The translations under genes were made by a program, and so were the position numbers. A stretch of DNA of 64,000 nucleotides. It comes from a phage. Shown here in pieces: positions 35,774 to 48,521 of the stretch. The notes under the pieces were generated by a model. The model saw nothing but the letters and a program-made list of their open reading frames with translations. It was not told the origin of the DNA and did not search any database. Location: the sequence record PX880103.1; one strand, written 5' to 3'. The first letter of the stretch is position 1, and each line of letters begins with the position of its first letter.

Positions 35774-36235
35774 TCATTGAGTTTTAATTACTGCTTTAGA
35801 AGCCTTTCCTGGTAAACGACGACTGTTAATAATTGCCATCCTACATTGAAGTGACGGGTCTTTGAACTTCTCGTTAGGTTTACAAACTGTAAATCCGAGC
35901 CAAAGATTTCCATCTGTGATTTCTAAACGTCCAGGACGATATTCAACCCCATCAATAAAATCCTCGTCAATGTCAGGACGCGGAGGCATACTCAGGAATT
36001 CATTAACTTCTAAAACATGGTCTTTTATTTTATGGAATAATTCAAAAACGTATGTCTCATCAATCTCCCGTTGAATTGCACGATCAAGAAGATGTTGAGA
36101 ATATTTTAGATGAAACGATGAGACCCCTGCTGCTTTTGATGCCTCACGAATCTCATTGTTAATTTGACGAAACTCCGACTCAAAGTGACGACGAAGCTTA
36201 TTTCGACGGATAAAAACTTCAGTGTTGATAGTCAT
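35774..36235 (-). CDS. regB: Endoribonuclease RegB
   Basis: 153 aa matching T4 RegB as remembered. Confidence 0.85.
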   Translation of the reverse strand: MTINTEVFIRRNKLRRHFESEFRQINNEIREASKAAGVSSFHLKYSQHLLDRAIQREIDETYVFELFHKIKDHVLEVNEFLSMPPRPDIDEDFIDGVEYRPGRLEITDGNLWLGFTVCKPNEKFKDPSLQCRMAIINSRRLPGKASKAVIKTQ

Positions 36236-36260
36236 GTTATTCTCCTCTTAACTGATAGAA

Positions 36261-36294
36261 AAATTATACCACAGTCAAGAGGAAAAGTAAACAG
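36261..36294 (-). promoter_or_regulatory. Early promoter
   Basis: Minus strand CTGTTTACTTTTCCTCTTGACTGTGGTATAATTT, upstream of regB. Confidence 0.55.
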
Positions 36295-36573
36295 TTATTC
36301 TTTAAATCTAATCAATTTATTCATAGACTTTGAAACTTCTGCACGGACCTCATGTAGGTTTTTAAGTTGTTCAAGACGTTGCTCATAGTAAGCAATTTCA
36401 TCTTCTTCGAGACAGTCCTGCGAATCTTCTTTAAGATACCGTGCATAGTCCTGGAAAGCGTTACGGACTACTTCCTGGAAGTCATCAAGACTTTGAATTT
36501 TCTTAGGAGCAACAGATACACGACGAGGGGCAGTATAATACTCGTAACCAAACCCTGCGCTTAATTGAGCCAT
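36295..36573 (-). CDS. Hypothetical protein (vs.3 position)
   Basis: Start set at internal Met MAQLSAG. Confidence 0.4.
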
Positions 36574-36839
36574 TAGTATTTTTCCTCTGGTTGGAACACT
36601 GCACGACAAGCCCACATACTGGCTTCTTTGAGTTTCGTTTTAGCAATAGTTAACTGATCGAGGCTTTCAGCATAATTCTTCGCGAATTCACAGTCTTCAC
36701 AATTATCTAGTGCTTCCCAGAATTCATCATATAAAGCATCAAAGATAAGTCCTAAACGAACTTCAGCGTCTTTGATAGCATTTACTTTACCGATTTTCTC
36801 TTCAGTATGTGGCTTATAACCCTTAATATCTTCAATCAT
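36573..36839 (-). CDS. Hypothetical small protein at the vs.4 position (candidate Acb2-like cyclic-nucleotide sponge)
   Basis: Start at ATG preceded by GAGGAAG SD; assignment by position and size only. Confidence 0.35.
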
Positions 36840-37053
36840 ATTTGACTTCCTCACCAGTACATAAATCATATTCAACTAAACGAATGGGTTCATGAATGCC
36901 ATATCCCTGAACAGAAATTTCTGTTGTAGGATAAATTCCATCAATATCACCCATATTCCACGCTTCATTAAATTGCTGTTCGCCTGAATTACTAAACCAC
37001 TCGGCGAAAGCATTTAGCACATCTTCAGAACCTTCAATAATTATCTTTGCCAT
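36832..37053 (-). CDS. Hypothetical protein
   Basis: 73 aa acidic ORF. Confidence 0.4.
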   Translation of the reverse strand: MAKIIIEGSEDVLNAFAEWFSNSGEQQFNEAWNMGDIDGIYPTTEISVQGYGIHEPIRLVEYDLCTGEEVKYD

Positions 37054-37415
37054 TACAAACTCTCGGTAAAGGTACGAGCGATAACGTCGCGCTGCTGTTC
37101 CGGAGTCAGAGAGTTAAAGCGAACTGCATAACCGGATACACGGATGGTCAGCTGCGGATATTTTTCCGGATGCTTAACTGCATCTTCCAGAGTTTCACGA
37201 CGCAGAACGTTAACGTTCAGGTGTTGACCACCTTCAATTTTAACTGTAGGTTGTGTTTCAATTTCAATTTCACGGGCATGCAAACCATAGAAAATTTCTG
37301 GGTCTACAAAAGAGTCCTCTTTAAAGGTTTTAGAAACAATAATTCGCGCTTGAATACCATCTTCAAAATAAATAGTACCTTTATGCGTGCCTTCAAGAAT
37401 TTGATATGCTTTCAT
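37053..37415 (-). CDS. Autonomous glycyl radical cofactor (GrcA/YfiD-like)
   Basis: 120 aa with C-terminal glycyl-radical motif RVSGYAVRF typical of PFL C-terminus and GrcA. Confidence 0.7.
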
Positions 37416-37421
37416 ATAACC

Positions 37422-37751
37422 TCAATTAGAAAATAAATTTATCCAAGATTGTTCTTTAATTAAAAATGGCTCAGAATCATATGCCATTAAACTTTGGGTG
37501 ATTAGTCCTTTAAAAGGCCCATCAATAAATTCCATGGTAAAATATGGAATTTTATTCATTAACTTTGCATTAGGAGCAGTACACAAAACTCTACATCCTT
37601 TGAATACACCTTTTTGTAATTTGTATTGCTTAGGATAAAATTCGCTCAAGACGTTGTTATTTGCCAAAATTTCAAAATGATTCACCAATTTATTTTTAAT
37701 AGTTTTTGGCGAAAAATAAAGATATTCGAAAAGTTGTGTGTCTGTCATCAT
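37422..37751 (-). CDS. Hypothetical protein
   Basis: 109 aa ORF. Confidence 0.45.
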   Translation of the reverse strand: MMTDTQLFEYLYFSPKTIKNKLVNHFEILANNNVLSEFYPKQYKLQKGVFKGCRVLCTAPNAKLMNKIPYFTMEFIDGPFKGLITQSLMAYDSEPFLIKEQSWINLFSN

Positions 37752-38335
37752 TGCATTCCAATTACGAAAAACTGTGGACGAGTAATACCATCAATGCAAC
37801 ATTTACTGTTGCAGCAGTGTTGTACAGTTTCAATATGAATATCGTAAATTTTATCCATATCAGGAGATTTAACAGGCTCATCGATTATATACAAAATCCG
37901 CGAAAGCGATAAACCTCTGAACTTGCTACCTCTATTACCAACAAAACTACGGACAGAATCAGTAAATAAACGGAATCGAATATCATCGCTAGAATAACGA
38001 GAAAATTCTTTTTTAATGTTGCCAGCAGAAATTTTAGCATAAGCTGAAGTATTAGAAAGAACAATAACTGTTCCGCCGTCATACAGCCAATTAGCAGCGA
38101 AGTTAGTCACAGCAGTTGATTTACCAGATTGACGTCCACCATCTAGTCGAAGTGTGCAATACTGCTTAAGTAAGTCTTCAAATGGCGGGATATAATCATT
38201 TTTACAAATTTCTTCTACTCTAGCATCAGAATGGTGTGTAAAAGCATTCATCAGGGATAGATAAGGACCAGTTAAAAATGTTCTCATTTTGTTCTCTCTA
38301 AATTTGGGCCATTCCGTGGCGCATGAATTGTCCAT
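37748..38335 (-). CDS. Small P-loop NTPase
   Basis: Walker A GGRQSGKST and Walker B ILYIIDEP; true start may be the internal Met at 38287. Confidence 0.5.
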   Translation of the reverse strand: MDNSCATEWPKFRENKMRTFLTGPYLSLMNAFTHHSDARVEEICKNDYIPPFEDLLKQYCTLRLDGGRQSGKSTAVTNFAANWLYDGGTVIVLSNTSAYAKISAGNIKKEFSRYSSDDIRFRLFTDSVRSFVGNRGSKFRGLSLSRILYIIDEPVKSPDMDKIYDIHIETVQHCCNSKCCIDGITRPQFFVIGMQ

Positions 38336-38506
38336 TTCTGTATTTACCCATTACCGCACTTGGGCTCGACCTTATTACAGGTTGGCGGGAATCCCTCACA
38401 GAATCATGAGGTCCAGCTTGTTCCCATGTTATTTGAATGTAAATATTTTTGCCTTAATACTTATACCAGTGTGGCTTCATTAAAATTTTTTCATCGAGTC
38501 ATTTTA
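38336..38506 (-). pseudogene. Possible remnant of the denV (endonuclease V) locus: promoter, SD and a 3-codon ORF (MTR-stop) followed by non-coding, relatively GC-rich sequence
   Basis: Minus strand reads GGAGAGG-N5-ATGACTCGATGA just downstream of an early promoter; T4 endonuclease V begins MTR; no ORF of 60 aa or more in 38336..38559. Confidence 0.3.
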
Positions 38507-38523
38507 CCTCTCCAAGTAATTAT

Positions 38524-38559
38524 GAATATACTATCACAATTTTAGGAGAAAGTAAACTG
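38524..38559 (-). promoter_or_regulatory. Early promoter
   Basis: Minus strand AACAGTTTACTTTCTCCTAAAATTGTGATAGTATATTC, directly after ipII stop. Confidence 0.55.
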
Positions 38560-42822: not shown

Positions 42823-43110
42823 AGTATTTCCTTAGGTTAATTAAGATTTAAAATCCATGAGAGTATTATACTCCGGATAGTTTGTAAACTATTTCAACAT
42901 CGCCTTTTGCTGCTTTATAACCTTCAGCCCAAGATACAACCGAGTTTTTATCTGAAGATTCAAATTCTGGCATTGGGCTTTCTCCAATGTTCACGCAGTA
43001 TGTTTCTTCATTTTCGTCGAACCAAATAATTAAAGTAGTCATTTATTTCTCCGTTTCTGTATTTGTTTTGATAAGTCTATAATAACACCGTCCTTGGTGT
43101 TTGTACACAA

Positions 43111-43386
43111 TTATTTCATATTATTGAAATATTCTTCTGCGATTTCGTCATTATCATGGTAAACTTTAGAAGACAGTTTAACATAACCTTCTGCCGTGAA
43201 CATATTAATCACAACCTTTACAGTATACCACTGACCATCTTCATTACCCATTACTGCGTAAGTTTCAAACATCGGATGGTCAGGACCGATAACTTTAATA
43301 TCATTCACTGTACGACCAAAATCTTCTGAAACGCATTTCATAAAGAAGTTGAACAGTTCGCCGTAATTATCCATTTTATTCTCCAA
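43111..43386 (-). CDS. Hypothetical protein
   Basis: 91 aa ORF downstream of an early promoter. Confidence 0.45.
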   Translation of the reverse strand: MENKMDNYGELFNFFMKCVSEDFGRTVNDIKVIGPDHPMFETYAVMGNEDGQWYTVKVVINMFTAEGYVKLSSKVYHDNDEIAEEYFNNMK

Positions 43387-43567: not shown

Positions 43568-43598
43568 ACCAAAAATCCCTATCATTTAGATAGGGATT
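43568..43598 (-). terminator. Rho-independent terminator after the leader-bearing gene 43604..44167
   Basis: Minus strand AAUCCCUAUCUAAAUGAUAGGGAUU then UUUUGG. Confidence 0.55.
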
Positions 43599-43603
43599 TA
43601 AAA

Positions 43604-44167
43604 TTATTTACCTAGTTTAGTTATTATAGCTTCGGCAGCAGCTTTTAGCTTAGATGCAGTGTTAATACGATTTTTAATTTCAGTATAAGCATCGCCAAGA
43701 ACATCAAGGCTATCAGAATAAACACTTACACTATTGCGTTCGCTATTTGAAATAGAACCTTTAGTTTTACGATCAAAATCAGTGTACACATCTTGAAGAT
43801 CGCGGGCTGCCTTCTTTGCATCATCTAACGCATCAAGAGCTTTATTCAAAGCATTGACATATTTTTTAGTATCAAACATATTCTTAGAAATTTTGACAGG
43901 TGCGCGTTCAGGAGTAGCTAAGGCAGATTTAGGAACCTGAGCGCCTGATGCTAATTTCTTAGAAATTTTGAAAAATGCTTTATTGAATTTATTTTCTTGA
44001 CTCATCGTAAAAGAACTATTATCAATGTTATACATTTCAATAGCTTTAGCTTTCCACTTAAGAAAATCGCCACGGTCTTTTGGGTCCAATTGGAAGAATA
44101 CTTTAGTAAGATCTGCTTCAGATGGTAATTTTGCTGCTTCGGTTAAAAATTCGGCATAGGTTTTCAT
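43604..44167 (-). CDS. Candidate internal protein with capsid-targeting-like leader
   Basis: Starts MKTYAEFLTEA, same leader pattern as the ip genes; 187 aa; followed by a terminator. Confidence 0.5.
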   Translation of the reverse strand: MKTYAEFLTEAAKLPSEADLTKVFFQLDPKDRGDFLKWKAKAIEMYNIDNSSFTMSQENKFNKAFFKISKKLASGAQVPKSALATPERAPVKISKNMFDTKKYVNALNKALDALDDAKKAARDLQDVYTDFDRKTKGSISNSERNSVSVYSDSLDVLGDAYTEIKNRINTASKLKAAAEAIITKLGK

Positions 44168-44249
44168 TTAAAATCCTTGAAATAATTTATCGGTTGGTTA
44201 TTAATTATTTATTACTTTGTTATTATCCGTAACAGCATTCTCTATGTGA

Positions 44250-44287
44250 TTCAAACTAAAAAGCCCCAACCTTTCGGTCGGGGCTAA
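44250..44287 (-). terminator. Rho-independent terminator closing the tRNA/stable-RNA cluster
   Basis: Minus strand AGCCCCGACCGAAAGGUUGGGGCU followed by UUUUU. Confidence 0.6.
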
Positions 44288-44601: not shown

Positions 44602-44677
44602 TGGTCGAGGCAGTAGGGATCGAACCTACGACCTAGGACTTAGAAGGTCCTTGCTCTTCCTTCTGAGCTATGCCTCG
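44602..44677 (-). tRNA. tRNA-Arg (anticodon UCU)
   Basis: Hand fold: 7 bp acceptor CGAGGCA/UGCCUCG, anticodon loop CUUCUAA, T-loop UUCGAUC, encoded CCA; 76 nt. Confidence 0.85.
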
Positions 44678-44681
44678 GATT

Positions 44682-44756
44682 TGGCGGACGTGATAGGATT
44701 CGAACCTATAACCAATCGCTTAACAGGCGATCGCTCTGCCATTGAGCTACACATCC
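44682..44756 (-). tRNA. tRNA-Asn (anticodon GUU)
   Basis: Hand fold: acceptor GGAUGUG/CACGUCC, anticodon stem AUCGC/GCGAU with loop CUGUUAA, T-loop UUCGAAU, encoded CCA; 75 nt. Confidence 0.75.
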
Positions 44757-44760
44757 AAAT

Positions 44761-44847
44761 TGGTGGGGAGTGATGGAGTCGAACCACCCGAGTCGCAATG
44801 ACAATGGATTTACAGTCCACACCGCTACCTCTACGGGATAACTCCCC
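44761..44847 (-). tRNA. tRNA-Tyr (anticodon GUA), class II with long variable arm
   Basis: Acceptor GGGGAGU/ACUCCCC, anticodon loop CUGUAAA, variable arm resembles bacterial tRNA-Tyr, encoded CCA; 87 nt. Confidence 0.75.
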
Positions 44848-44856
44848 AAATTAATT

Positions 44857-44931
44857 TGGTGGCCCTGGGTGGAATTGAACCACCATCTGGCGATTATGAG
44901 TCGCTTGCTTGAACCTTCCAGCTACAGGGCC
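44857..44931 (-). tRNA. tRNA with anticodon CAU (Met, or Ile if lysidine-modified)
   Basis: Acceptor GGCCCUG/CAGGGCC, anticodon loop CUCAUAA, T-loop UUCAAUU, encoded CCA; 75 nt. Confidence 0.8.
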
Positions 44932-44939
44932 AAATTTTC

Positions 44940-45425
44940 TTATTTTATGTAATATTTATTTAAAAACTTTCTAGCTTGAGTATGGCTAACATTTATAGCG
45001 TTTGCATAATTTTTAATAAAACCTCGTTCATCCATATTAAAATTTTCTAATATTTTTAATCGTCTAGTTATCTCATCTTGACTTAAGGTACTTGCATTAT
45101 TTTTAGAAATTTTTTCTAAGGACTGTGCCGAGTGTTTTCGACCATTAAAATTAAAATTTTTAGATTTTGGAGGAAATCTAGCATTTAATCTCGCATCTTT
45201 TGTATTTTGATTATTAGTTGCGCAATATATGTTATTTAATGAATATGGTCCTTTATCGCCGAAACGGCACATGCAGTATTCATGACCCTTTCTTCCACGC
45301 TTATCATAATTTCCCGTTGATTTCCACCAATGCAACCATTCATCAAAAGTTAAATTCCATTCAATGTTTCTACGTATAGCAGAATTCCGCTGAGAAATAT
45401 ATTTTGCATAATCTTCTTTCATCAC
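44940..45425 (-). CDS. Putative HNH-family homing endonuclease-like protein embedded in the tRNA cluster
   Basis: 161 aa; GHEYCMCRFGDKGPYSLNNIYCATNNQN cysteine/Asn-rich nuclease-like core plus C-terminal helix-turn-helix-like tail; free-standing between tRNA sub-clusters. Confidence 0.45.
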   Translation of the reverse strand: MMKEDYAKYISQRNSAIRRNIEWNLTFDEWLHWWKSTGNYDKRGRKGHEYCMCRFGDKGPYSLNNIYCATNNQNTKDARLNARFPPKSKNFNFNGRKHSAQSLEKISKNNASTLSQDEITRRLKILENFNMDERGFIKNYANAINVSHTQARKFLNKYYIK

Positions 45426-45469
45426 AAATTTCTCTACTTATTCAATACACTGAGCTAAATCAGCAAAAC

Positions 45470-45811: not shown

Positions 45812-45817
45812 GCTATA

Positions 45818-46450
45818 TTATTTATTACGTGAAAAAGACTGTTCTATCAATTCTGGACACTTTCGTTCTATCCATTTTCTAGCTTTTTGTGGGCTTATAC
45901 CTATTATTTTAGCAGCTTTACTAACCCATCCAAATTTAGAATAATCGATTTTAACTAATTCTTCGTAAATTTCATCAGTTAAAATCTTTTCATTAATATT
46001 TACCAGTAAATGATATAATTTATTATCATTAGCAATTTTAATGAATCTTTTATAGTTTCCGCCTTTACTTAAACCTAATGAAGTAATTGCAGATGATATA
46101 GTAGCCGAATTTAATAGCGCGTTTAAAATTTCTTCATCACTAACATTATAACGCTTTTTATTATTTTTAATATTTTTACCAGCAAAAGTATCAGTTTGCG
46201 AATGGCAGTTTGGACATAATAATCTTAAATTAGATTTAAGATGATTTTTGTTATTTCCATCAATATGGTCTAATTGCAGAACAATATGCTTATTTTGCCA
46301 TTTTGAAATTTTACAAATTGCACACTCATATGGAAAAATATTTTCTTTTATTATTTTGTCTTTCAGCTTTCCTGTACTAAAATTTGGATGTTTTCCTTCA
46401 AAAATTTCAGCTAATTTAGTATCCATAATATAATTCCCAATTATTAACAA
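45818..46450 (-). CDS. HNH homing endonuclease
   Basis: CAICK...LQLDHIDGNNKNHLKSNLRLLCPNCH: classic zinc-bound HNH motif; lies immediately upstream of tRNA-Leu. Confidence 0.6.
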   Translation of the reverse strand: MLIIGNYIMDTKLAEIFEGKHPNFSTGKLKDKIIKENIFPYECAICKISKWQNKHIVLQLDHIDGNNKNHLKSNLRLLCPNCHSQTDTFAGKNIKNNKKRYNVSDEEILNALLNSATISSAITSLGLSKGGNYKRFIKIANDNKLYHLLVNINEKILTDEIYEELVKIDYSKFGWVSKAAKIIGISPQKARKWIERKCPELIEQSFSRNK

Positions 46451-47493: not shown

Positions 47494-47751
47494 TTATTTT
47501 AAATCTTCTAATCGTTTCTTCATCTTAGAACCGTTCTTAGCGATTTCGCCTGCATCAGAGCATAATGCTAAAAGTGCTTTAACTTTAGTTTGGTCTCCTT
47601 TAAAAGATGAAGGATCAACAGCAGCAGCAAGTTCTTTAATACGAGAGAAAAGACGCTCAGCTTCAGCTAAAGCCATTCCAAGCTTTACTTCCATACCGTG
47701 GGAAGATTCAGTGATAGTAGTTTTTGTAGCAAACTCTTTGAAAGTTTTCAT
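47494..47751 (-). CDS. Small protein with capsid-targeting-like leader at the ipI locus
   Basis: Starts MKTFKEFATK; 85 aa; immediately upstream of 57B. Confidence 0.5.
   Translation of the reverse strand: MKTFKEFATKTTITESSHGMEVKLGMALAEAERLFSRIKELAAAVDPSSFKGDQTKVKALLALCSDAGEIAKNGSKMKKRLEDLK

Positions 47752-47824: not shown

Positions 47825-48521
<697 letters not shown>

Follow-up and report, generated by a model that had tools for sequence, protein, structure and literature searches.

The window analysed here is a stretch of 64,000 nucleotides from a phage (sequence record PX880103.1). In the plus-strand direction, the region of interest reads tk.4, vs, vs.1, regB, vs.3, vs.4, vs.5, vs.6, vs.7 and vs.8, and T4 (reference NC_000866) likewise has regB-vs.3-vs.4-vs.5 in this order. 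regB (35774..36235) matches the Pfam family REGB_T4 (E 8e-69), and vs.6 is glycyl-radical, GrcA-like. The vs.4 ORF lies on the minus strand at 36573..36839, coordinates that include the stop codon, and comprises 88 codons, with its ATG start at 36839 and its TAA stop at 36575..36573. It is the acb2 gene, coding for a predicted cyclic-dinucleotide sponge of 88 aa. An 88-aa ORF had been reported at this position in the preliminary description of the window; the ORF is real, and the T4 gene order around it is kept. In the program-made ORF list it begins further upstream, with a TTG at 36875, and has 100 aa (36573..36875). We rejected this longer form as the real gene in favor of the ATG at 36839, because the crystallised protein and the T4 annotation both begin at this ATG, which is preceded by a GAGGAA Shine-Dalgarno. 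This Shine-Dalgarno-like element, read from the sequence, is located at 36847..36852 on the minus strand, 7 nt 5' of the ATG and within the vs.5 coding sequence.

Upstream of vs.4, vs.5 (36832..37053, minus strand) is a 73-aa ORF whose final 8 nt lie within the beginning of vs.4 (ATGATTGA). It matches phrog_1986 over its full length (E 9.6e-44), and in T2 and RB68, too, vs.5 is annotated with 73 aa. A single C is missing from vs.5 in the T4 reference, which reads TTTCGCGAG against TTTCGCCGAG in the window. Because the gene is 1 nt shorter there, a frameshifted 58-aa vs.5 is annotated. The T4 reference appears to be the outlier in vs.5, or it may carry a sequence error. A search for a solved relative of Vs.5 gave no significant one; its sole match at E up to 1 was SurE (E 0.0086), which we took as chance. 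In PHROGs, vs.5, vs.7 and vs.8 have no function assigned, and no informative family or structure match was obtained for them.

Downstream, vs.3 (36295..36573, minus strand) follows acb2 immediately, and its ATG at 36573..36571 shares one base with the vs.4 TAA (TAATG). Chen et al. (Nat Commun 2026, PMC13243611) identified T4 Vs.3 as TadIV-1, a dimer that acts as a sponge and sequesters the type IV Thoeris signal N7-cADPR, and found that TadIV-1 needs the long N-terminal form together with R17, R18 and K24. The 92-aa product in the window is identical to T4 Vs.3 at 91 of 92 positions, the single difference being T64E, and matches PDB 9WIW, the apo TadIV-1 of phage UPEC07, with E 5.6e-38. With 92 aa it exceeds the 80 aa that mark the long form, includes the N-terminal loop and has R17, R18 and K24. 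vs.3 is thus a predicted tadIV-1, a signal sponge beside acb2 that was absent from the preliminary description. With acb2 and vs.3 adjacent, two unrelated immune-signal sponges would therefore stand back to back. In some phage records vs.3 is labelled 'endoribonuclease', and PDB 9WIW bears the same molecule name.

The overlapping stop and start codons would allow vs.5, vs.4 and vs.3 to be translated as a tightly packed run, which would yield Acb2 and TadIV-1, the Thoeris IV sponge, together, and the two are probably translationally coupled. We consider it rather unlikely, though worth naming, that vs.5, vs.7 and vs.8 are also counter-defence genes, so that the compact run from vs.8 to vs.3 would form a small anti-defence cassette, or that coupled Acb2/TadIV-1 translation matters functionally. 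The tests of Vs.3 to Vs.8 by Chen et al. covered type IV Thoeris only, and expression of these genes from a plasmid can be driven by the vs.8 promoter (PMC13243611). In T4, acb1 and acb2 are expressed predominantly as middle/late genes according to a transcriptome atlas (10.64898/2026.03.30.715471). On the minus strand of the window between 35700 and 38700, we found neither the T4 late motif (TATAAATA) nor a full MotA-box middle-promoter pattern. A sigma-70 scan upstream of vs.4 gave nothing above shuffle expectation, and neither the motif search nor the scan found a convincing promoter consensus directly 5' of acb2. A tentative early-type promoter is located further upstream, at 38528..38557 on the minus strand just past the ipII stop, with GTTTACT and TAGTAT separated by a 17-nt spacer. 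It fits the consensus at 8 of 12 positions, which is under the scan threshold, and was not reported by the sigma-70 scan. This stretch has its homologue in T4 on the 5' side of denV and, with denV missing, stands directly upstream of vs.8, where it might tentatively serve as a promoter. Expression of acb2 in the window phage is likewise presumed.

The absence of denV is one of several differences from T4. The 5.4 kb around vs.4 has 97.0% nucleotide identity to T4, and the best phage record for 36000..37500 (1.5 kb) is 98.7% identical. On sequence comparison, the window belongs to a T4-like Tequatrovirus that is close to T4 and is not T4 itself, because the identity is about 97%, denV is absent and the IpI cargo is another one. 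denV (endonuclease V) is absent, and at 38426..38543 the window has 118 bp of unrelated AT-rich sequence in place of about 460 bp. T4 homology breaks off just upstream of vs.8 and picks up again upstream of T4 denV. Since about 34 other phage records share the denV-less junction, it is a known polymorphism, and it is the absence of denV that makes the region upstream of vs.4 unlike T4. The adjacent vs.8 is also altered. T4 vs.8 is annotated with 219 aa; in the window its N-terminal part falls into two ORFs in different frames, one of 33 aa and one of 195 aa (38298..38399 and 37748..38335, both minus strand). The real start is probably the internal Met of MRTFLTG in both phages, because the family profile begins near that point.

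Further differences lie outside this region. The gene at the ipI position (47494..47751, minus strand, 85 aa) keeps the MKTFKEF N-terminal leader, followed by cargo unrelated to T4 IpI, and its product matches phrog_3499, internal head protein. T4 IpI inhibits the restriction enzyme GmrSD, and the window phage may differ from T4 in this respect. Between 42838 and 46431, the region of e.7/e.8, the small RNAs, the tRNAs and segB, the T4 alignment is only patchy, with gaps at about 42838..43111, 43579..44255, 44605..45449 and 45814..46431, which suggests a different tRNA and homing-endonuclease content. In addition, e.2 is apparently missing from the window, as the T4 segment 1094..1558 (locus L008) has no counterpart.

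The assignment of the vs.4 ORF to Acb2 had been proposed on position only, with alignment to T4 Vs.4 named beforehand as the test and a lack of similarity as the refuting outcome. The guess holds because alignment now gives direct sequence evidence. A phmmer search of all PDB chains matched T4 Vs.4 of PDB 7UQ2 with 88/88 residues identical (E 1.9e-57), and PaMx33 Acb2 (p26; 8IXZ, 8H2J) as a weaker full-length match over residues 4-85 (E about 0.03). The product also matches Pfam PF24729, Acb2_Tad1_hairpin, over profile positions 1-58 of 58 with 71.4 bits (E 7.1e-20), the curated gathering cut-off being 27 bits. At the nucleotide level, the gene carries 4 substitutions in 267 nt relative to NC_000866, every one of them synonymous. 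A tblastn search with Vs.4 matched 1232 of 50,697 phage records, the T4 records at 100%. Every residue named in the literature is present, as the identity predicts: Y8, K23 and F82 of the cyclic-dinucleotide pocket, the proposed cA3-blocking residues Y37, A57, L60, D61 and T64, and T68.

T4 Vs.4 has been equated with Acb2 in several studies (PMC10449767, PMC10312549, PMC12657218). As summarised in PMC10449767, Jenson et al. 2023 found T4 Vs.4 in a mutagenesis screen as a protein giving resistance to type II CBASS without full Cap2 function. According to the same summary, Vs.4 binds cGAMP by ITC, crystallises as a hexamer with three cGAMP and, as a recombinant protein, stopped CapV activation as a sponge. 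Cao et al. (PMC10312549) reported a Kd of about 84 nM for 3'3'-cGAMP and a dinucleotide range equal to that of PaMx33 Acb2. In the PaMx33 protein, Y11 stacks on the bases and K26 makes salt bridges (PMC10312549); in our phmmer alignment, these residues correspond to Y8 and K23 of the window Vs.4. By analogy with the published work on the identical protein, Vs.4 would form an interlocked hexamer with three bound cyclic dinucleotides; each ligand would sit in a pocket to which two protomers contribute their N-terminal parts. Vs.4 would bind 3'3'-cGAMP and other cyclic dinucleotides made by CBASS CD-NTases and would not degrade them. Holding the signal would raise the firing threshold of effectors such as CapV, so that the phage can replicate. 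The same activity would be a liability in Panoptes hosts, because T4 Acb2 also binds the decoy 2'3'-c-di-AMP, and sequestering this decoy releases the toxic effector OptE (PMC12657218). In that system, T4 Acb2 Y8A does not trigger Panoptes, and the F82C escaper has diminished binding (PMC12657218).

Not every acb2 allele is intact. We aligned seven Acb2 sequences, the window protein and six homologues with identities as low as 51%. All seven keep K23 and a 15-residue C-terminal block, only T2 lacks the N-terminal KGY motif, and the middle helices are variable. T2 acb2 (PV648363.1, L002 283..543) has a 2-nt deletion that places a stop after codon 7 in the normal frame, and the annotated T2 Acb2 begins in another frame, without G7-Y8, where Y8 is the dinucleotide-stacking tyrosine. 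It is because of this deletion that T2 differs from the other aligned sequences, in agreement with the remark that T2 Acb2 probably has a disrupted dinucleotide site (PMC12657218). The window could in principle carry an inactivated allele of this type, which would have lost the dinucleotide-binding N-terminus and might thereby evade decoy sensing of the Panoptes kind. Such alleles exist, as T2 demonstrates, and phage record H65 matches Vs.4 residues 2-34 only by tblastn. But the 11-residue N-terminus is intact in the window, Y8, K23 and F82 are kept, and the whole protein equals the active T4 one. We therefore rejected a T2-type inactivation at the sequence level as very improbable, the window allele being of the intact T4 type. 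Among other homologues, Acb2 of Klebsiella phage ZCKP1, a Phapecoctavirus outside Straboviridae, is 77% identical (L007 295..564), which suggests horizontal spread of acb2 between phage families.

The ligand range of Acb2 proteins also varies, and the window protein might be imagined to bind trinucleotides as well as dinucleotides, as PaMx33 or JBD67 Acb2 does. It shares their family, and its T68 matches T74 of PaMx33 Acb2, which contacts cA3 (PMC10312549). However, neither ITC nor native gels showed binding of cA3 or cAAG to the identical T4 protein, and the D61R mutant did not bind them either. This failure was attributed to an unkinked helix and possible clashes at Y37, A57, L60, D61 and T64 (PMC10312549), all of which are kept in the window. 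The published data on the identical protein led us to reject trinucleotide binding, which now seems extremely improbable. The window Acb2 is thus expected to bind neither cA3 nor cAAG, like T4 Acb2 and unlike PaMx33 Acb2. That the ORF merely sits at the vs.4 position as an unrelated or chance small ORF is practically inconceivable and found no support, because the protein is 100% identical to T4 Vs.4, matches the Pfam family, differs in four synonymous nucleotides and recurs in the 1232 matched phage records.

Our preferred reading, to which we assign a probability of about 0.97, is that the vs.4 ORF is the acb2 gene of a T4-like Tequatrovirus and that its protein, identical to T4 Acb2, would also act like it. 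No evidence against the Acb2 assignment was found in the sequence. The function of Acb2 in the window phage is predicted from its identity to the tested T4 protein.

The preliminary description also listed a 57B ortholog at 47825..48283 with two H-x-T/S motifs and called it an Acb1 homolog. Both statements are confirmed. The gene (minus strand) codes for a 152-aa predicted 2H-phosphoesterase that would cleave cyclic oligonucleotides. As in T4, it is flanked by the ipI-position gene on one side and 57A on the other. All 152 residues are identical to T4 57B, with 4 nt differences between the genes. Pfam PF23474, Acb1, matches with 202.7 bits (E 2.7e-60) against a cut-off of 27 bits, and the solved Acb1 of Erwinia phage FBB1 (PDB 7T26) with E 4.2e-62. 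Hobbs et al. (PMC9117128) defined the HxT/HxT tetrad of Acb1 and showed that T4 57B is Acb1. The two motifs in the window, H44-S-T46 and H113-I-T115, make the catalytic tetrad H44/T46/H113/T115 complete. 57B would add a second, degradative anti-CBASS activity 11 kb from acb2.

As a discovery, these results carry little weight, since the structure, ligand range and infection role of Acb2 are already published. Their practical value lies in correct annotation, vs.4 being still a 'hypothetical protein' in most phage records. The window phage has the full T4 signal-neutralising set, comprising Acb1, TadIV-1 and an Acb2 that is intact where the T2 allele is not. Going by what is published for the identical or nearly identical T4 proteins, we predict resistance to cGAMP-type CBASS and to type IV Thoeris, and sensitivity to Panoptes.

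In relation to known systems, the window holds T4 Acb2 itself in a close T4 relative, already described and with no difference from the known protein. T4 Vs.4 (NP_049728; PDB 7UQ2) is the same protein, flanked by the same regB, vs.3, vs.5 and vs.6, and the vs.4-vs.3 junction is TAATG in both phages. The genes differ in the four synonymous nucleotides, and the upstream vs.5 and denV context differs as well. PaMx33 Acb2 (p26; 8H2J, 8IXZ) shares the family and fold, its stacking Tyr and its Lys align, and both proteins are hexameric cyclic-dinucleotide sponges (PMC10312549). It has only about 24% identity, however, and binds cA3/cAAG in two extra pockets, whereas the T4 type does not (PMC10312549). 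The neighbouring vs.3 product is nearly the same as T4 TadIV-1, sharing its long form and its R17/R18/K24. TadIV-1 belongs to a different family from Acb2, targets N7-cADPR and not CBASS nucleotides, and works as a dimer with a pocket of flexible N-terminal loops (PMC13243611). The 57B product equals T4 Acb1 (NP_049750); it shares the HxT/HxT tetrad and the match to Pfam Acb1 with FBB1 Acb1 (PDB 7T26). Acb2 holds the signal as a sponge, whereas Acb1 cleaves it enzymatically; the two sequences are unrelated, and their genes lie 11 kb apart in the window.
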